DNA from: Parcubacteria group bacterium M10-OD1-1
GTDB lineage: Bacteria > Patescibacteriota > Minisyncoccia > Moranbacterales > UBA2206
DNA: 44,240 nucleotides
Assembly (NCBI GenBank): GCA_003056145.1
Contig: LSNL01000007.1
Span: 1-44,240 of the forward strand
Direction: 5' to 3'
A program made the position numbers and the translations under genes. Below are positions 4,289 to 44,240 of this stretch, one piece after another (positions within the stretch are counted from its first letter, which is position 1; the number at the start of each line of letters is the position of its first letter). Under the pieces are notes generated by a model, which saw only the letters and a program-made list of their open reading frames with translations, was not told the origin of the DNA and made no database searches.

Positions 4289-6036
4289 TTTTTTTCAACA
4301 TTTTTTACTGTTATCATTGGAATACCCATTCCTTCAGTTATACTTTTGAAATCTAAATTTTTTAACAAACTATAAATATATTTTGTTAAAACTTTTTTAT
4401 TATTTAAACTAACCGCAATAGTTGTTTGGGTACAAGTAAAATCTTCTAAATTTGGCATCTTTACAGAACCAATTGTCCCTCTAGCACCAATTACTAAAGT
4501 ATTTTTACTAAATGATAGTTTTGTTTTTTCTGTAAAATTCCAAGGTTTTTCAGATGTATCTGCACTAAAAATTGCTTTTCCTTTTCCAGTTAAATCTTTC
4601 TTTATTAAAGTCTCTCCCATTCTTATATTAGCAATTTCTTTTAAATTAAAAATATCAAATTTCACATTAGAATAATCGACAACTTCTCTATATCTATCAC
4701 CAGTTAAATTATAATCTCCACTCTCTGCAATCTCTGATTTCTTTACTGCAAAAGCAACTTTTTGACCTTCTTTAACTTTTTGTTTTTCTTTCCACTCTTT
4801 CAAAACTTCTAAAGCTAACGGAAAATCATTTTTATCAATTTCTCGTCTTTGTGCTCCTAAATCAAAACCATCATTTTCTATTTTTATGAATAAAACTTCT
4901 TTTTTCTTTTTTGTTATATCGTTATCAAAAAGCAAGATGGAAGTCTTAACTCCAGAATACGGATTAAAAACTCCTGACGGTAAAGACACCACCGCATACA
5001 AACCATCTTCAACTAAAATTTTTCTCAATTTTTTATAAGCATTTGCTGATTGAAAAATAATTCCCTCCGGCACAATAATTCCTGCTCGCCCTTTTGGTCG
5101 CAAGTGTTCTACAATATAATCTACAAAAAGTACTTCGGCTCTATTTGCTTGAACACCAAATTTTGAATGTGGTTCTATTCCGCCTTTTGGAGTCATAAAT
5201 GGTGGATTGGCTAGAATAATATCAAAATCTTCATCCCAGTTATCCGTACTGGATAAAGTATCATAAACTCTAATATCTGGATTTTTGAATTTATGTAAAT
5301 AAGTATTGACTTGTGCCGTTCGCACCATATTTGAATCAATATCATATCCAGTAATATTTTTGTGAATTTTTGCTCGCTCTGCTGAAGTTAGTGGTTTTTC
5401 TTTATTTGTTGGTTTACCTGTTTTGTTATCAAGCCCATCATGAGCTTCTAAAATATGCTTATAAGCTGAAATCAAAAATCCACCAGTTCCACAAGCTGGA
5501 TCTAAAATTTTATCTTCTTTTTGTGGATCAATAGCCTTAACAATAAAATCAATAATATGCCGTGGTGTTCTAAATTGTCCCGCATCTCCTTGAGAACCCA
5601 TAATGCTTAAAAGATACTCATAAGCATTTCCTAATTCTTCAGAATTATCATATTGAAATTGGTCAATTTCTGAAAGAAATAAACCTAGTGTTCGGGGATC
5701 ATTAAAAGGTAAGTAAACATTTTTGAAAATATCTCTAAAAAGTTGCGGTATCTTATTATTTTCCGGAATTCTTTTTAATGCCTCTAAAAATAAATTTAAT
5801 TTTTCTTGATTTCCAAGACGACTGTCCATTAAATTATGCCAAGAATATTTTTTGAAATCTCCTGTGAAAAAACTGCCATTACCACCTAATTTTCTAGATT
5901 GCTCGTCCATATCATCCATAAACTTATAAATCAAAGCGGTGGTGATAAGATCAACCTGTTGCATTGGGTTTGGCAAAACTCCAACTAAAACTTGCCTAGC
6001 ACCATCTATCCTTCTTTTTGTTTCTGCTGTTAACAT
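4270..6036 (-). CDS. hsdM: Type I N6-adenine methyltransferase fused to first HsdS TRD (HsdM-S fusion, truncated by frameshift)
   Basis: GQFRTPRHI, ILDPACGTGGFL, ILANPPF; the C-terminal ~130 aa are TRD-like (GARGTIGSV, GIPMITV). Confidence 0.93.
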   Translation of the reverse strand: MLTAETKRRIDGARQVLVGVLPNPMQQVDLITTALIYKFMDDMDEQSRKLGGNGSFFTGDFKKYSWHNLMDSRLGNQEKLNLFLEALKRIPENNKIPQLFRDIFKNVYLPFNDPRTLGLFLSEIDQFQYDNSEELGNAYEYLLSIMGSQGDAGQFRTPRHIIDFIVKAIDPQKEDKILDPACGTGGFLISAYKHILEAHDGLDNKTGKPTNKEKPLTSAERAKIHKNITGYDIDSNMVRTAQVNTYLHKFKNPDIRVYDTLSSTDNWDEDFDIILANPPFMTPKGGIEPHSKFGVQANRAEVLFVDYIVEHLRPKGRAGIIVPEGIIFQSANAYKKLRKILVEDGLYAVVSLPSGVFNPYSGVKTSILLFDNDITKKKKEVLFIKIENDGFDLGAQRREIDKNDFPLALEVLKEWKEKQKVKEGQKVAFAVKKSEIAESGDYNLTGDRYREVVDYSNVKFDIFNLKEIANIRMGETLIKKDLTGKGKAIFSADTSEKPWNFTEKTKLSFSKNTLVIGARGTIGSVKMPNLEDFTCTQTTIAVSLNNKKVLTKYIYSLLKNLDFKSITEGMGIPMITVKNVEKNKLLKN

Positions 6037-6040
6037 AATT

Positions 6041-8572
6041 TTATCTATAAATATTTGTATTAATATAATCCTTTACATAAGTTGGTATTTTTTTCCTATA
6101 ATTTTCTGGAACATTTTCCAAGTCCTCCATAGTAAGTTTTGGATTAGTTGCTAGCTGATTAAATTCTTTAGTGTCAATAATATTTTCTATTTCTTTATCC
6201 TCAATGTAAGTATTAAAAAAATATTTTGTTTTTGCATATTCGTCTGGTGCTACTTCTCCCATTTCTGTTGCTCTAAACTTTTCAAATTCACTATCAAGCA
6301 ATTCTTCTTTTGTCTCAAATCGCTTTTTCTTTCCAAAAGCATAATCTAAAAGTTCATTCATTCTTACTCGTCTATCTAATTTTAATGCTTTTCTAATTTT
6401 ATCTAAATTCATAAAGTTTTTAGGCTTATCAAAAATTTGCACTCTAATAATATCACCAGCCTCTTGATAATTATTATTTTCTATCAATTTTTCTAACTCT
6501 TTATTTGTTTTTAAATCTTCATCAATAAATTTAGAAAATGCCTCTCTGTCTATCCTCATTCCGTCTTCACCGATTTTTGTTTTTTCTTTTGTCTTTATTT
6601 TATCTTCGGACTTAAGATCTATTTCATCAGCTATCGCAGGAACTAGTCCAATGCTAATATCCTCTTTTTTTCCCTCTTTTGGTAGTTCTAATATTTCATC
6701 ATAATCAAAATCTTCTTCAAAATATTGATAGTTAGCAAAAAAATCAAATAAATAAAAGTTATCTTTCTTTCTTGCTATTTCTTCTCTAGTTTCTGAGTCA
6801 ATGTACTTAAAAATATTTTTTCTAGTACCTCTTCCTTTGATTTGCACAAAATCAGATGGGGAAAATATCGGTCGCATTAATACAAGATTTAAAATATTCG
6901 GACAATCATAGCCTGTTGCCATCATCCCAACCGTAACTGTAACCCTCGATTTACTCGTTTTATAACCTTCCAAAAATTGGCTTGTGCCATTGAGTCGATC
7001 ATTAGCAAAATCAACAGTCATTTGTTGTGCTCCTTGCACATGAGAGGTAATTTGAACTGCAAAATCAGACTTATATTTTCCTAACCATTTCTGCATCGCT
7101 AACTTATTTAAAATACTTGTAATTTTAGCAGCATGATTTTGGCTAACTGCGAAAATAATCGTCTTGCCAATTTCACCGCTAACTGGATCAAGCTTTGCAT
7201 TATTTAAAAAAGCCTTACAAAATTGAACATTTGTTTCTTCATTAAAAAATCTTTTTTCAAAATTTCTTCCAAAAAAAGTTTCCTCGATTTCTTTTCCATT
7301 GTCATCAACGGTATGTACGGCATAACCCTCTTCGGATAAAAGTTCAGTAGTAATTTCTGTACGAATATCTAAAACATACGGATTAACTAAATATTTTGGC
7401 ACACCATCAGCTAAGCTAAATCTATAGGTAGGCTCTCCAGACTCACAACCAAAAGTTTTATAAGTATCTAATAATTGTCTTTTTTCATAAGCTCGTTGTG
7501 AATTTTGTTTAACATCTTCGTCAACTCCTTTTAAATACTCTTTTGGCGTAGCCGTTAGCCCAAGTTTAAATCCTACAAAATATTCAAAAACTGCTCGAGC
7601 ATTTCCACTTATTGACCTGTGAGATTCATCAGAAATAACAAACTCAAAATCAGTTGGTGAAAACTCTTTTTTATATCTGTCATTTGAAGCTAAGCTTTGC
7701 ACAGTTGAAATAACTATATGTGCATTTTTCCAAGTATCTCTTGATTCTTTATAAACAGCTATTTGATAATCTTTTTCTAAATAATCCCTAAAAGCTTTTT
7801 TTGCTTGATCTTCTAATTCCAACCTATCCACCAAAAATAATATCCTCTTAGCATTGCCCGTTTTAAGAAATAATTTTGAAATAGCCGCTGTAGTCAAGGT
7901 TTTTCCTGTTCCAGTCGCCATCTCTAAAAGATATCTAGTATTTCCTTTTTTGGCTGATTCTTGAATAGCGTAAATTGCCTCTAGCTGATAATCTCTTAAA
8001 ATTCTTACCCCTGTTTTAAATAAATAATCATTTTTTTCTTCCTCTGTTCCATTTTGCCACAGTGGATTATTTTGAAAGCTTAGATTTTTTGAAAGAGCAA
8101 TATAATCTTCACCCACTTCTTCTAGTGATAATCTTTCTGGATTCGGATTGTATTTACTAAATTCAGCTAATGATTCTTGTGTAGGGAATTTAATAATTAT
8201 TTCTGGATTTCCTTTTTCAATATCCCAAAGATAATGGATATTTCCATTCGATAAAATAACATAACGAGCATGATTTGTTCTGGCATATTTTCTAGCTTGA
8301 TCTTTTGCACTTAAAGGATTTATACTTTCTTTCTTTGCCTCTAAAACTACCAAAGCTTTTCCGTCTTGATCTAATAACAAATAATCAATATAGCCATCCT
8401 TTGTCATTTCAAAATTATCTCCCTGACTATTTATATCTTCTTTTTTAATCTTTACATTTGGCTCTAGTTGAATATTTGCCTCTCCATTTTCATCATCAAA
8501 AAACCGCCATCCTGCTTCTTCAAGAAGTTTGTTTATTTTTATTCGTGCTTTTGCCTCCTTTGCAGTTGTCAT
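6041..8572 (-). CDS. hsdR: Type I restriction endonuclease subunit R (EcoAI/EcoEI-like)
   Basis: DYLLLD...VLEAKK (PD-D/ExK nuclease), MATGTGKT, DESHR, LTATP, ATGYDCP, QIKGRGTR. Confidence 0.95.
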   Translation of the reverse strand: MTTAKEAKARIKINKLLEEAGWRFFDDENGEANIQLEPNVKIKKEDINSQGDNFEMTKDGYIDYLLLDQDGKALVVLEAKKESINPLSAKDQARKYARTNHARYVILSNGNIHYLWDIEKGNPEIIIKFPTQESLAEFSKYNPNPERLSLEEVGEDYIALSKNLSFQNNPLWQNGTEEEKNDYLFKTGVRILRDYQLEAIYAIQESAKKGNTRYLLEMATGTGKTLTTAAISKLFLKTGNAKRILFLVDRLELEDQAKKAFRDYLEKDYQIAVYKESRDTWKNAHIVISTVQSLASNDRYKKEFSPTDFEFVISDESHRSISGNARAVFEYFVGFKLGLTATPKEYLKGVDEDVKQNSQRAYEKRQLLDTYKTFGCESGEPTYRFSLADGVPKYLVNPYVLDIRTEITTELLSEEGYAVHTVDDNGKEIEETFFGRNFEKRFFNEETNVQFCKAFLNNAKLDPVSGEIGKTIIFAVSQNHAAKITSILNKLAMQKWLGKYKSDFAVQITSHVQGAQQMTVDFANDRLNGTSQFLEGYKTSKSRVTVTVGMMATGYDCPNILNLVLMRPIFSPSDFVQIKGRGTRKNIFKYIDSETREEIARKKDNFYLFDFFANYQYFEEDFDYDEILELPKEGKKEDISIGLVPAIADEIDLKSEDKIKTKEKTKIGEDGMRIDREAFSKFIDEDLKTNKELEKLIENNNYQEAGDIIRVQIFDKPKNFMNLDKIRKALKLDRRVRMNELLDYAFGKKKRFETKEELLDSEFEKFRATEMGEVAPDEYAKTKYFFNTYIEDKEIENIIDTKEFNQLATNPKLTMEDLENVPENYRKKIPTYVKDYINTNIYR

Positions 8573-41427: not shown

Positions 41428-41804
41428 AATCATACGATTTAATCAAAAGTAGCCGCACATTTCAAAAATACATTAGAAATTAACAAAGATATATTTTCTT
41501 TTTAGTTTTTGATGCCCAATTCAGTAGCTGAGCTTTATAGACACAATTTTAAAAAGTATCCTCAGGAAAATTAAAAGTCACCCATTTTTGCTCAATTAGT
41601 AAAATATTTACTAGAAAATATTTTAAATGCATCAAAAACAATCAAAAATAGGCAAACTGCTTTAGAAAAATCAACCAACAATTCACCTTCTGAAAGTTCT
41701 CTCATCCAAAAAGCATAGGTGAAGACCGAAAATTTCGGTTGTCTCTTGATTAAATTGAAATATTTGCTATAATCAGGTTACTTTAGATTTTTAAAAAAAT
41801 ATAT

Positions 41805-41879
41805 TCCGCGATAGCTCAATGGTAGAGCAGTTGACTGTTAATCAATTGGTTGTAGGTTCGAGTCCTACTCGCGGAGCCA
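41805..41879 (+). tRNA. tRNA-Asn (GTT), CCA encoded
   Basis: TCCGCGA...TCGCGGA-GCCA; anticodon loop CTGTTAA. Confidence 0.97.
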
Positions 41880-41919
41880 AAAAAAATACAGAGTTAACTC
41901 TGTATTTTTTTTGGCTCCG
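41872..41919. terminator. 48-bp perfect palindrome/terminator overlapping the tRNA-Asn 3' end
   Basis: CGGAGCC-A8-TACAGAGTTAACTCTGTA-T8-GGCTCCG. Confidence 0.85.
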
Positions 41920-42056
41920 AACTCTGAACGAAATCCGAACTTTTTTTAAGGAAAATCCGCAAGCGGATTTAGAAGACTGACCACGCACGGAGCGTGTGGT
42001 AGCTCTGACTTCTTTCTTACGCTCCGATGAAATAGGTAATTTAATCGGTGCGTTTC

Positions 42057-42090
42057 CTCTCGCCTCCGCTCCGGCGAAACAAAACAGAAA
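42057..42090 (+). repeat. Repeat A, copy 1 (34 bp)
   Basis: CTCTCGCCTCCGCTCCGGCGAAACAAAACAGAAA, identical at 43995-44028; contains a TCGCC/GGCGA hairpin. Confidence 0.95.
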
Positions 42091-42295
42091 CGCGCGCGAG
42101 CTACAAGAGGTCGGTGAGGACATCGATGAAATTTCCGAAGACATTGAAGAGATTGGTGAAGACATCGACGAAATGTCTGAAGATGACGAAGAAGATGAAG
42201 AACATCGAAAAATACAAAATGTTATATTGGGCAAACTTACGAAAGATATCCAGCGCATCCTCGATGACCTTGAGACTCTGAAGCACTCGAGGTAA
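42083..42295 (+). pseudogene. 3' remnant of an acidic-repeat membrane protein gene (DUF1003-like, tentative)
   Basis: NRNARELQEVGEDIDEISEDIEEIGEDIDEM...DDLETLKHSR*; no plausible start; begins within the end of repeat A. Confidence 0.55.
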
Positions 42296-42297
42296 GA
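42266..42297 (+). repeat. Repeat B, copy 1 (32 bp)
   Basis: GACCTTGAGACTCTGAAGCACTCGAGGTAAGA; second copy at 43788-43819 with one mismatch. Confidence 0.95.
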
Positions 42298-42411
42298 CAC
42301 GAATACCAACAAGAAACTTCTTGGACTTCAAAATTAATCATTTTTTTATAAAAAAATAGCATCGGATTTTATTCCAATGCTATCAGATATGAACTGAAAG
42401 AACTTTTTAGA

Positions 42412-42630
42412 TTAGAACTGCCACCACTTTTTGCGTGGTTTTGGTTCTTCTAATAACTCTGTAATCTGCTCGACAATGAACTTATGTCGACCAGCAGTAC
42501 GATTAACGCTTATTAGGCGCATTATAACATCTCTCTTCCGTGCCCCGCAAAGGGCGTTTGCAAGTTCATCTACAAACCTTGCATCTTCTTTAAGTTGCTC
42601 CTTGGTTCCTTTGAAATATATTGTCGACAT
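42412..42630 (-). CDS. 72-aa hypothetical protein ending KPRKKWWQF
   Basis: SD GAGGGG at 42640-42645; 19 nt downstream of the DHH gene. Confidence 0.7.
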   Translation of the reverse strand: MSTIYFKGTKEQLKEDARFVDELANALCGARKRDVIMRLISVNRTAGRHKFIVEQITELLEEPKPRKKWWQF

Positions 42631-42649
42631 AATCTTTAGCCCCTCTAAT

Positions 42650-43459
42650 TTAGTTAGTATGTTTTAAAAACTCCTCAACTTTATCTTGATTGGCGTACCC
42701 TCCCCAAAAGGCGGTTTTACCCGCTTCCCCGAGACCAGCACCGCCTGACCAACCGTCAAATTTTTCCTGAAGTTTAAAACAAATTTCTCCGTCTCCGGAA
42801 AAATTTGTTTCTCCGTCTCCGGAAAAGACCACATACTGAGGAATATCTTCTCCCTCAGTAAAATTCAGAATGGCGAAGTAGTCCCCCACAGGACCACATT
42901 TCGAGTGACTCATACGAATCACCCGAATGGAGCCAACCATCTCAACAGGAGCATTCAAGGCCCTGCTGATTTCCGCCATCATATCCTCTGTAACCCCCTG
43001 AAGACTGCTGTCTTCATGCCGGATTTTTTTCACCTCCTCCTGCGTGGCAGGCGGTGACAAGAAACCCGTGCCGGGAATTTCCAGTGTGCCAGCAAGACCA
43101 GGAAACCAACCTGCATCGTTGGCAGCCACAATATGATCCCAACGAGTCGGCGGAACGCCGAGCAAATCAAGCACCTGCAATATAGCAGGTGGCTCATTCA
43201 CTCTGTCATTGTGATGATCAATCACGACTGCCGTTTCCGGCAAGTCGCAGTCAACCTCCAGCTCAATTAGAACTGGAATCTTCCCGGTTTTGGCAACCGC
43301 GGCGAACTCCTGTTCGCCGTAATCGGACGCTTTTGCGCCCCAGCCTAAACCCGCGTCGCGGACCTCGCAGCCCGCTTTTTCAAGAACTTCCGCGATGCGC
43401 GCCATTTCGGCGTCTGCACCGCCGAGAAAAAATACATAATTATTTAACTTGTTGTCCAT
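42650..43459 (-). CDS. DHH-family phosphodiesterase, NrN-like
   Basis: FLGGADAEM, VIDHHN, VAANDAGWFPG, IRHED...QGV, CGPVGD, FWGG. SD AAGGAG at 43467-43472. Confidence 0.8.
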   Translation of the reverse strand: MDNKLNNYVFFLGGADAEMARIAEVLEKAGCEVRDAGLGWGAKASDYGEQEFAAVAKTGKIPVLIELEVDCDLPETAVVIDHHNDRVNEPPAILQVLDLLGVPPTRWDHIVAANDAGWFPGLAGTLEIPGTGFLSPPATQEEVKKIRHEDSSLQGVTEDMMAEISRALNAPVEMVGSIRVIRMSHSKCGPVGDYFAILNFTEGEDIPQYVVFSGDGETNFSGDGEICFKLQEKFDGWSGGAGLGEAGKTAFWGGYANQDKVEEFLKHTN

Positions 43460-43555
43460 GATTTATCTCCTTAGATATTACGCCTTCATCATATTAGAAT
43501 CCGGCAATTTTATCCGCCCCAACACCGTTGGTTCAGAAATTAAAATTCATCGACT

Positions 43556-43609
43556 CTTGCGAGCAACGTTTTAACTATAAAAAATTACAATCAAAACATT
43601 GCTCGCAAG
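43556..43609. repeat. 17-bp inverted repeat (1 mismatch), 20-nt spacer
   Basis: CTTGCGAGCAACGTTTT ... AAAACATTGCTCGCAAG. Confidence 0.9.
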
Positions 43610-43732
43610 CACTTTGCACTCAACAAATTGAAAACGGAGTACATTTCATCGTGTTTTCAAAGAACAGCATTCAGATTTAAACAAATCTACTAATTAGTAA
43701 AGCATATTGAAGTTCATTTGTCAAGGACATGT

Positions 43733-43774
43733 ACTGAATTAACACTTGAGGTGCACGTCAAGTGTTAATTCAGT
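43733..43774. repeat. Perfect 17-bp inverted repeat, 8-nt loop
   Basis: ACTGAATTAACACTTGA-GGTGCACG-TCAAGTGTTAATTCAGT. Confidence 0.95.
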
Positions 43775-43787
43775 CTTAACAGTACGC

Positions 43788-43819
43788 GACCTTGAGACTC
43801 TGAAGCGCTCGAGGTAAGA
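43788..43819 (+). repeat. Repeat B, copy 2
   Basis: GACCTTGAGACTCTGAAGCGCTCGAGGTAAGA. Confidence 0.95.
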
Positions 43820-43877
43820 TATTAGGGTTGTAAACGAACTGATAAAAGTTTACGATTAAAAACTTCAAAATAAGTGA

Positions 43878-43950
43878 GGGCCATTAGCTCATCTGGTAGA
43901 GCGCATCCATGGCATGGATGAGGTGAGCGGTTCGAGTCCGCTATGGTCCA
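43878..43950 (+). tRNA. tRNA-Ala (GGC)
   Basis: GGGCCAT/ATGGTCC acceptor with G3.U70; anticodon loop ATGGCAT (A32-U38, typical of Ala-GGC). Confidence 0.96.
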
Positions 43951-43994
43951 CAAACGCGAACTTCGTTCGCAGACAGCACAACACGACCGCGCTA

Positions 43995-44028
43995 CTCTCG
44001 CCTCCGCTCCGGCGAAACAAAACAGAAA
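43995..44028 (+). repeat. Repeat A, copy 2
   Basis: Identical to 42057-42090. Confidence 0.95.
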
Positions 44029-44240
44029 TTTTTTCAATACATTTTTTTAATTTTTTTCTGCCCCCATTTTTTTCTTTTAATAGGAATTGAAAAATTTTCT
44101 GTTTTGATTTCCTCTTAATCAGAGAAAAGCGGAAACGCTCTATTTTTAATCGCAAAAGGGCAAAAATTCCTTCCCCCAGACCCCCTTCCTTTTTGCCCTT
44201 TTGTTTTTCGGGCTTCGCCCGATTTACACAGTACGTAGTC

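Follow-up and report, generated by a model that had tools for sequence, protein, structure and literature searches.

How did two pairs of direct repeats, one nested within the other, come to enclose a gene cassette and a tRNA gene at the end of a contig from an uncultivated bacterium? The window (the whole stretch of DNA that was analysed, 44,240 nt) is an entire contig, C1, and the nested-repeat feature occupies its last 2.3 kb. The outer repeat, A (CTCTCGCCTCCGCTCCGGCGAAACAAAACAGAAA), is present at 42057-42090 and 43995-44028 with 34/34 identity, and the inner repeat, B (GACCTTGAGACTCTGAAGC(A/G)CTCGAGGTAAGA), at 42266-42297 and 43788-43819 with 31/32 identity, which confirms the arrangement A-[B-cassette-B-tRNA-Ala]-A described in the original prediction. 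By simple arithmetic, ~1e-12 such A pairs and ~1e-9 such B pairs would be expected by chance in 44 kb. A search for further copies, which the prediction had proposed, revealed two of A and two of B in the whole 866-kb genome and no third copy of either with up to 6 mismatches allowed, and the exact B pattern had no matches in JGI metagenome contigs. A does belong to a dispersed family of sequences, described below as arms. ORF and family searches found no integrase within 41880-44240, as predicted, and no terminal inverted repeats were present at the ends of the 1.49-kb cassette or of the A-bounded unit. The nested repeats are best read as traces left by two ordinary accidents of recombination and not as paired integrase-style mobile elements, and the two successive insertions that had been proposed are supported. 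The features of the interval are as follows.

41805-41879, plus strand: native tRNA-Asn(GTT), identified by ARAGORN and by Rfam (75.6 bits); the arm starts at its 3' end
41872-41919, no strand: perfect 24+24-nt palindrome that overlaps the 3' end of the tRNA and forms the arm's outer end; 40 nt are identical in the arm of contig C2
41880-42056, plus: L part of the arm module (rich in hairpins and in GC), 88% identical to C2 428-213 in a colinear alignment
42057-42090, plus: repeat A copy 1, belonging to the recipient's arm and ending in the 9-10 nt (AAACAGAAA) that form the left-joint microhomology
42091-42295, plus: 3' 70 codons of a foreign DUF1003-family membrane-protein gene; the N-terminal half, with two transmembrane segments, is missing
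42266-42297, plus: repeat B copy 1, where the DUF1003-family gene truly ends, stop codon included
42298-43787, minus: inserted cassette, 1,490 nt
~42360-42387: terminator hairpin of the cassette (plus strand), with a T-run at ~42344-42359 as read on the minus strand
42412-42630: 72-aa ORF of the cassette
42650-43459: NrN-like DHH phosphodiesterase gene of the cassette
43556-43609 and 43733-43774: leader palindromes of the cassette
43788-43819, plus: repeat B copy 2, the duplicated gene end in its ancestral place before tRNA-Ala
43878-43951, plus: tRNA-Ala(GGC), foreign and redundant, 74/74 identical to that of genome L030
43952-43994, plus: donor-type spacer from tRNA-Ala to the arm
43995-44028, plus: repeat A copy 2, running on into R as in uninterrupted arms
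44029-44225, plus: R part of the arm, 92% identical to C2 239-24, with a 31-nt-armed inverted repeat at 44015-44109, a hairpin at 44153-44203 and a terminator-like CGGGCTTCGCCCG followed by Ts
44226-44240, no strand: final 15 nt of the contig (ACACAGTACGTAGTC), likely to be an artefact of the assembly end; Logan contigs read TTTTCGGCAGGGTTAAAATTCTT instead, like C2

A permissive Rfam scan of 41500-44240 returned only the two tRNAs, and the arm is therefore without a match to a known RNA family. An 81-nt unitig covering 41821-41901 joins tRNA-Asn to the arm at host depth in public runs X2 and X3. A motif related to the 44226-44240 end occurs only at contig ends.

Comparison with relatives accounts for the inner repeat. 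In both the window and L030, a distant CPR genome, a 1.49-kb GC-rich cassette (43-54% GC vs 30% in the host) lies between the DUF1003-family gene and tRNA-Ala, and the last 32 nt of the gene are duplicated; L030 contains the full 146-aa gene together with the cassette and both copies of B (32/32). B corresponds to the last 9 codons plus the stop codon of the ORF at 41996-42295 (DLETLKHSR*, with ..DLETLKRSR* in the other copy), as had been noted for the truncated acidic-repeat gene. Four other genomes (L031, L032, L034 and L035) have empty sites, in which a DUF1003-family gene is followed by tRNA-Ala(GGC) 13-50 nt on, and the gene end in L034, GACCTTGAGGCACTGAAGCAGTCGCGGTAAGA, resembles B. These alleles, which the original prediction had suggested seeking, bear out its view that the cassette integrated where the acidic-repeat (DUF1003-family) gene ends, and B is, judging from the sequence comparison, a target duplication caused by that insertion. 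The suggestion that B is itself a hairpin fared less well: B does fold, but only modestly (dG -5 kcal/mol, z -2.1, with 7/200 shuffles equally good), and the fold is not kept in relatives. A role for B as a functional hairpin or attC-like site was rejected on the weakness of the fold and its lack of conservation at orthologous gene ends. The cassette contains the NrN-like gene and the 72-aa ORF, which has no family match, and no mobility gene; its proteins matched nothing in Pfam or NCBIfam, and their assignment called for structure prediction. The 72-aa ORF was considered as a conserved partner of NrN and dismissed, as it is not conserved beside NrN in other loci. Rfam searches of the leaders in L049, L050 and L003 found no family above threshold.

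The piece that contains this cassette came from another lineage. Positions 42082-43951 of the window share 96.6% nucleotide identity with L030, the remainder of which has no other match to the window, whereas RNase J of the host and of L030 are only 39% identical; the 1.9-kb piece is thus recent foreign DNA (about 2-3% divergence), shared by organisms that are otherwise only remotely related. GC3 of the NrN gene is 0.50, vs 0.19-0.22 in host genes. The truncated gene product is 97% identical in amino acids to the full-length L030 protein P0121 (146 aa) over residues 77-146 of the latter, and no other DUF1003-family gene is present in the genome; the family label derives mainly from named homologs, the Pfam DUF1003 score being below cut-off (22.2 bits vs 27.4, E 1.7e-4). 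Because a native tRNA-Ala(GGC), 78% identical to the foreign copy, is located at C2 83028-83101, the foreign tRNA is redundant. Further instances of the 1.9-kb unit were found in L030 only. The spacer at 43952-43994 is absent from L030 and adjoins the same tRNA-Ala in other genotypes of the samples.

Repeat A has a different background from B. It sits inside a ~410-nt hairpin-rich arm, and it is single-copy in uninterrupted arms, such as those of G481, which read L-A-R without a break. When 41880-42090 is joined to 44029-44225, the product aligns colinearly with the C2 arm (370 identical positions in 436 columns, including 23 extra C2 nt). At the left joint, the arm and the donor gene have in common the microhomology AAACAG(A/G)AA (AAACAGRAA; 9/10 nt), the window tracking the arm up to and including ..CAAAACAGAAA, and the donor gene from AAACAG(G)AACGCGCG onwards. 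The right joint may lie in sequence homologous between donor and recipient, as suggested by the arm that follows tRNA-Ala in L030 and by a depth excess in runs X1 and X4, the latter from k=31 contigs only. The original prediction treated the A-bounded unit as a discrete mobile element; since it starts mid-gene at a 9-10-nt microhomology and probably ends in donor/recipient-shared sequence, that view is not supported, and the segment appears to be an arbitrary slice of donor chromosome.

We consider it probable that two separate events produced the locus: an older cassette insertion in the donor and a recent homology-facilitated illegitimate recombination through the arm. In the first, the 1.49-kb GC-rich cassette would have landed, in the donor lineage, between the DUF1003-family stop codon and tRNA-Ala(GGC), duplicating the last 32 nt of the gene (B) with neither a mobility gene nor site specificity. 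In the second, the DNA that entered this genome would have been a donor piece beginning midway along the DUF1003-family gene, taking in the cassette and tRNA-Ala and reaching into the following arm. It would have recombined with the resident homologous arm beside tRNA-Asn, the right side joining by homology within A-R and the left side illegitimately at AAACAG(A/G)AA, at the end of the recipient's A. Because the illegitimate joint would lie inside the region of homology, A would then border the 1.9-kb insert at each end; a fragment that first became a circle at the microhomology and afterwards crossed in through A would give an identical product. The genome contains the uptake genes ComEC and DprA, and we infer uptake of the DNA by competence, just as we infer in what order the strands joined and which crossover made the right-hand side. 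Homology-facilitated illegitimate recombination was reportedly described by de Vries and Wackernagel in 2002 in natural transformation. In the laboratory, it usually deletes recipient DNA and produces no duplication, which counts against our explanation.

Public sequencing runs were read as k=31 contigs, which cannot span A or B (32-34 nt) or the 40-nt palindrome common to the arms, so that evidence for linkage across the interval comes from the original assembler and from depth pairing, which is noisy. The contigs of four runs fit the layout. Depths on the left (L to A/A to insert) were 20.4/22.5 in X1, 20.1/21.4 in X2, 25.5/31.1 in X3 and 17.9/21.6 in X4, and those on the right (insert to A/A to R) were 28.7/29.5, 14.3/12.7, 32.5/28.4 and 44.5/35.3, respectively. 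These pairings, noisy as they are, match the contig and not a circle plus an empty site. In X2, insert to A is below L to A, which counts against the two-event explanation. That insert-A-R is in excess in X1 and X4 speaks for a donor-type genome whose spacer-A-R is identical, a genotype deduced from depths and not from an assembled contig. In X1 the excess roughly equals the depth at which the intact-gene genotype occurs (11.6), and in X4, where this genotype stands at 34.8, it comes to some two thirds, a pattern to be expected where the window-type spacer is confined to a portion of the genotype.

Alternatively, A and B could both result from insertion with long target duplication, through a ~32-34-nt staggered break, microhomology at both ends and fill-in, in which case the donor's A-like sequence would be a short microhomology (CTCTCGCCTC) and no true anchor. 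The similar lengths of the duplications (34 and 32 nt) hint at one shared mechanism, against our preferred explanation, and the left-joint microhomology is consistent with it, as is a genotype in X5 in which CTCTCGCCTC comes after the spacer and the sequence diverges beyond it, so that the right joint may have its own 10-nt microhomology. Moreover, four further near-perfect direct repeats of 29-63 nt flank intervals of 0.7-1.7 kb in this genome, three of which hold a single gene, and such insertions are known from naturally competent bacteria (PMC2853133). We nevertheless regard a process shared by both repeats as unlikely: the X1/X4 excess points to a native sequence comprising the spacer, a full A and the start of R, and the arm comes directly after tRNA-Ala in L030, so homology is the simpler explanation for the right side. 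A later deletion is very improbable. A larger donor fragment, or a whole donor island together with its flank, would have been acquired first, beyond the tRNA-Asn arm on its downstream side, and an intrachromosomal deletion at the microhomology would have taken out all that lay between the end of A and the mid-part of the DUF1003-family gene; this would yield the same product with the same microhomology, and arms are repeated in the genome, but it needs two steps and the deleted material left no trace.

It is in our view quite unlikely that A, B or both are att sites left by decayed (CIME-like) integrative elements, from which a recombinase encoded elsewhere can excise 1.5- or 1.9-kb circles. 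B restores the 3' end of its target gene, as integrase elements do, the insert adjoins tRNA genes, three different right-hand partners occur at the A/R boundary, and a recombinase might come from an unassembled 5-kb cargo or be one of the two tyrosine recombinases in the genome, which are far from the locus. However, the A-bounded unit begins in a truncated gene and lacks terminal inverted repeats, no serine recombinase was found in the assembly or in the arm-bracketed loci examined, and neither skipping or circular joints nor an empty site from the same population turned up in k=31 contigs, which are too short for 32-34-nt repeats. In addition, A falls within the dispersed arm family, and 59 other NrN loci are at unrelated sites where flanking repeats differ or are absent; the claim that A and B serve a recombinase acting in trans is not supported. 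Mis-assembly of DNA from two organisms through a common tRNA or arm sequence is extremely unlikely, despite the position of the feature at a contig end, a jump in composition at 41880 and the co-occurrence of a donor-like organism in the same samples. Words of tRNA-Asn are common to many organisms (depth up to ~430 in X1 and ~3,650 in X4 vs 30 in the flank), and the L unitig has a depth of only 8-20 vs 30-49 in the flank. Yet the 9-10 nt of the left joint are too short for a k-mer chimera, a 73-nt contig spans that joint in four runs from three studies, the 81-nt contig ties tRNA-Asn to the arm at host depth, and C2, a 147-kb host contig, holds the partner arm.

Insertion with long target duplication has been defined as the insertion of a gene or gene pair that duplicates >30 bp without a transposase, integrase or terminal inverted repeats; empty sites have one copy of the repeat, and most examples are from competent bacteria (Furuta, Abe & Kobayashi 2010, PMC2853133). 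B fits this class fully, with a 32-nt duplication, single-copy empty sites in relatives and neither a mobility gene nor a terminal inverted repeat, and three or four other inserts in the genome do likewise; in the published class the cargo is restriction-modification (R-M), whereas here it is an NrN-type phosphodiesterase in an uncultivated CPR bacterium. The second event resembles homology-facilitated illegitimate recombination, a term used in PMC6382021, in having one joint at a 3-10-nt microhomology, a recipient with uptake genes and, probably, one homologous anchor. It differs in that the proposed anchor is a mobile hairpin-rich island arm common to distant lineages and, as the sequence suggests, in that the illegitimate joint would lie inside the anchor, duplicating 34 nt with no deletion. 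CIMEs and other integrase-less remnants with attL and attR similarly have target-derived direct repeats (here A and B), a position beside a tRNA gene and no internal recombinase, but this locus has no recurrent att core and no site specificity, and one of its ends is in a truncated gene. The locus is a clean natural fossil of gene gain in an ultra-small uncultivated bacterium, in which a transfer was probably fixed via a shared mobile arm and a microhomology joint; the assembled sequence shows no integrase, transposase or phage, and the 5-kb cargo beside it was not read.

The arm ties this locus to the widespread inverted-arm defence islands of CPR genomes. Arms are ~200-480-nt mosaics of GC-rich hairpins, conserved over 43 genera of one CPR order, and pieces of them recur in other genera. 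Among 301 genomes of the order, 53 have matches to the R part, for the most part in inverted pairs, which are present in at least 11 genomes; such pairs bracket R-M or other defence cargo (R-M in L018, L122 and L124), and in L030 tRNA-Ala is followed by an arm, cargo and an inverted arm. The arm hairpin pattern had no matches in viral contigs. The 3' end of C1 (plus) and the 5' end of C2 (minus) are partner arms, that of C2 being uninterrupted. A Logan contig of 5,090 nt from X1 and X2 (3,469 + 1,651 nt in X3), which the assembly lacks, has the first 30 nt of C2 at both ends in inverted orientation. This 5.09-kb cargo contig links C1 and C2. R-M units with long inverted repeats (PMC2853133) and tRNA-linked islands are comparable, since the arm of A likewise occurs in inverted pairs around R-M or defence cargo by tRNAs, but here the arms are ~200-480-nt hairpin mosaics and no recombinase was found in the loci examined. 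In X6, a variant of L-A continues into a third, unrelated sequence at the A/R boundary, making a preferred crossover point there possible, which counts against the two-event explanation. Whether the arms are a dedicated CPR platform for gene capture and exchange, with a preferred crossover at the A/R boundary, is doubtful. Under such a reading the crossover would lie within the stem of the 31-nt-armed inverted repeat, and the direct-repeat intervals (four to six near-perfect repeats of 29-63 nt around 0.7-1.9 kb, most with a single gene) would stem from one undescribed mechanism of cassette insertion. By this route, lineages as distant as classes would exchange defence cargo and, now and then, nearby chromosomal DNA like the NrN-tRNA piece.

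The label NrN given to the cassette enzyme proved apt. CorA-type III-B CRISPR systems have NrN as their SAM-AMP phosphodiesterase (Chi et al. 2023, PMC10600005; PDB 9lq9-9lqc), and the predicted structure of the 269-aa cassette enzyme matches NrN 9lqa/9lqc (Foldseek E 1e-19, TM 0.77-0.85, 26% identity), with PADLOC profile hits to C3a116 (1.5e-47) and DHH_CorA (8e-32). E18, D115 and the DHH motif are invariant in the NrN family alignment, and by position E18 and D115 plausibly correspond to E21 and D119 of NrN, which are mutated in crystal forms 9lqa/9lqc. From its fold and the DHH_CorA match, the enzyme is predicted to share the NrN activity; in contrast to the NrN of CorA systems, its gene is on its own, in a cassette that moves horizontally. 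A predicted SAM-AMP phosphodiesterase of NrN type thus travels as standalone cargo and might be an off-switch or an anti-CRISPR for type III signalling. The gene is rare (3 of 401 genomes of the phylum). None of the 59 other NrN loci is at a DUF1003-family gene, their contexts are unrelated to this one, and flanking repeats, where present, are unrelated (32, 41, 70 and 153 nt). Flanking repeats were set aside as a general trait of NrN, since 4/59 loci vs 8/459 control genes at the same score is a weak enrichment. Two of the four repeat-flanked NrN loci have duplicated 5' leaders, not insertion scars.

The coordinates of repeats A and B matched the original prediction exactly, and because the window is all of contig C1, the feature lies within the last 2.3 kb of that contig. 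G+C content steps from ~30% to 45-54% across 41880-44030, and no further copy of A or B was found in the 866-kb, 7-contig genome with up to 6 mismatches allowed.

Features at the 3' end of contig C1
41805-41879: tRNA-Asn(GTT)
42057 and 43995: repeat A, 34/34 identical
42266 and 43788: repeat B, 31/32 identical
43878-43951: tRNA-Ala(GGC)

The ORF at 41996-42295 corresponds to the 3' 70 codons of a gene whose product is a small membrane protein of the DUF1003 family, which is very frequent in Patescibacteria (3,816 homologs); the label comes mainly from homologs bearing the name, since the Pfam score (22.2 bits) falls below the family cut-off (27.4 bits). In four relatives (proteins 64-76% identical), tRNA-Ala(GGC) lies 13-50 nt past the stop codon of this gene, and the gene end at locus L034, GACCTTGAGGCACTGAAGCAGTCGCGGTAAGA, is recognisable as B. 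The gene-then-tRNA arrangement of these relatives is the empty site for the B event: in the window and in L030, a GTDB representative MAG labelled Ca. Saccharibacteria, tRNA-Ala is separated from the gene by a 1,490-nt cassette, flanked on each side by the gene's final 32 nt. The claim that the cassette entered the 3' end of a gene and duplicated B is therefore upheld. B does fold into the hairpin proposed for it, but weakly, and orthologous gene ends have no conserved hairpin. The cassette contains no mobility gene or terminal inverted repeats, and none of 59 other loci with related NrN genes, whose contexts are unrelated, has a DUF1003-family neighbor.

The 269-aa cassette protein had no Pfam or NCBIfam match, yet its predicted fold (high confidence, pLDDT 93.7) best matched the NrN crystal structures 9lqa/9lqc (E 1e-19, TM 0.77-0.85), which are of a SAM-AMP phosphodiesterase, and it matched the PADLOC profiles C3a116 (1.5e-47) and DHH_CorA (8e-32). 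The gene is rare (3/401 genomes of the phylum) and exceeds its CPR host flanks by 10-22 points of G+C at any host G+C (loci L040, L043, L047, L048, L053, L055, L057, L064, L072 and L118); human-gut homologs show no such excess. In L003, a CPR genome of 55% G+C, an NrN homolog and an unrelated 73-aa ORF lie between 153-nt direct repeats (4637-4789 and 6295-6447; 99% identical) that correspond to the terminator region 3' of a helicase gene. At two other loci, a 40-110-nt leader is duplicated, standing ahead of the NrN gene and again ahead of the gene that follows it (L049, 1483-1523 / 2647-2687; L050, 1597-1666 / 2688-2756) and may be a shared cis-regulatory RNA; Rfam gave no match for these leaders except a sub-threshold Hammerhead_3 at L050 2504-2587 (E 0.004).

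Four further near-perfect direct repeats of 29-63 nt surround 0.7-1.7-kb intervals in the host genome and appear to be insertions of the B type. Single-gene inserts lie in three of the intervals, bracketed by copies of the target: the beginning of a U32 peptidase gene at one, the 3' end of an ELP3-like gene at another and, at the third, the leader of a flippase gene located next to gmd. No ORF of at least 80 aa lies in the C3 interval.

Direct-repeat intervals
C4:80474-81320
C4:177309-178422
C4:243437-244950
C3:87986-89734

Window positions 42082-43951 are 96.6% identical to L030 (38 substitutions, three indels; tRNA-Ala 74/74), with no other DNA-level match in that genome, whereas RNase J of the host and of the L030 organism share only 39% identity. 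The host has its own tRNA-Ala(GGC) on contig C2 and no native DUF1003-family gene, and GC3 is 0.50 in NrN versus ~0.20 in host genes. Because of this disparity in identity, the extra tRNA, the lack of a native gene and the GC3, the segment is foreign DNA acquired recently. The prediction of two successive insertions was right, with empty sites for B and a separate foreign piece bounded by A.

Comparison of window, L030 gene and arm sequences (the arm being a hairpin-rich module beside tRNA-Asn, with left part L and right part R) places a 9-10-nt microhomology at the left joint. The DUF1003-family gene, intact in L030 (146 aa), is cut in the window at ..GTAAACAGGAA/CGCGCG; the joint reads ..CAAAACAGAAA/CGCGCG, and an arm copy elsewhere reads ..CAAAACAGAAA/TTTTTTCAATAC. 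A microhomology of this kind marks illegitimate recombination rather than an att site. TCTCGCC, at the start of A (42058-42064), also occurs in the L030 gene ~35 nt upstream of the microhomology, probably by chance.

Junction evidence came from k=31 Logan contigs of public sequencing runs, which are unable to span A, and depths were compared. A 73-nt contig across the junction from A into the insert was found in X1-X4 (three studies).

Depths at L>A, A>insert, insert>A and A>R
X1: 20.4, 22.5, 28.7, 29.5
X2: 20.1, 21.4, 14.3, 12.7
X3: 25.5, 31.1, 32.5, 28.4
X4: 17.9, 21.6, 44.5, 35.3

In these four runs the depth pairing agrees with the contig layout, and mis-assembly is highly improbable. The opposite pairing, as would be expected of a free circle and an empty site, did not fit the depths; with microhomology at the left joint, the proposal of integrase-less units excising as circles is unsupported, and att sites mobilised in trans are distinctly unlikely. 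Neither the assembly nor the arm-bracketed loci read yielded a serine recombinase. In X1 and X4 insert>A>R is in excess; the excess approximates the depth of a co-occurring genotype with the intact gene in X1 (11.6) and about two thirds of that genotype's depth in X4 (34.8), as expected if the window-type spacer is present in only part of that genotype. This excess points to a donor-type genome where tRNA-Ala natively runs through spacer and A into R.

The simplest account of the outer event is homology-facilitated illegitimate recombination, which would combine a homologous joint within the shared arm (A-R) on the right with an illegitimate joint at the microhomology on the left; equivalently, a circle closed at the microhomology could have entered by a single crossover through A. 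DNA uptake is plausible, because the host has ComEC and DprA and the donor co-occurs in the samples. Insertion at two microhomologies with a long target duplication, as for B, would make both events alike and is unlikely given the native A-R contiguity implied for the donor; acquisition followed by a later deletion, which could leave the same joints in two steps, is very unlikely. Both events are recombination scars of already known kinds; their value is that they record gene flow between classes of CPR bacteria and reveal an arm-island context.

Joined, 41880-42090 and 44029-44225 (408 nt) align colinearly with C2 1-428 read as its reverse complement (370 of 436 alignment columns identical, 23 extra C2 nt included), and a third, degenerate copy follows tRNA-Arg on C4. 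R (44010-44225) matches 53/301 genomes of the host's order (43/104 genera), in at least 11 of them as inverted pairs 2-9 kb apart. The arms of G481, with L-A-R unbroken, enclose two methyltransferases and an R.HinP1I-type endonuclease, those of G544 and G013 enclose other R-M or defence genes, and in L030 an inverted arm pair with four cargo genes between its members lies after tRNA-Ala. The C1 3' end (44029-44240) and C2 5' end (C2:1-428) form such an inverted pair, and a 5,090-nt Logan contig (depth 15.4 in X1, 17.4 in X2; split into 3,469 + 1,651 nt in X3) carries the same arm-proximal 30-mer (C2 1-30) at both ends in opposite orientation. C1 and C2 are therefore adjacent, with ~5 kb of cargo between them missing from the assembly.

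Two arm variants are absent from the assembly: in X6, an L-A variant (42004-42091) runs into unrelated AATAAGGAGAATG.. at the same A boundary, and in X1 and X3 an unbroken L-A''-R variant (42001/44014; X1 depth 24.7) differs in its 39-nt middle. Public contigs do not support the final 15 nt of the window (44226-44240); CACAGTGCGTGGTCGG, or a variant of it, is confined to contig extremities (C3 3', C4 both ends, C1 3', C6 5'), a pattern suggestive of an assembly or linker artefact. In several related genera tRNA-Asn matches as two halves ~200-560 nt apart, which suggests an intron or insertion within the tRNA gene.

Split tRNA-Asn matches
G005:C17:2994-3317
G010:C42:20343-20657
G020:C33:450-738
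G015:C12:26908-27552
G007:C2:203136-203437

On C2, a 325-aa tyrosine recombinase (99382-99936) adjoins tRNA-Met and tRNA-Val (99066-99223) and may be part of another integrated element.
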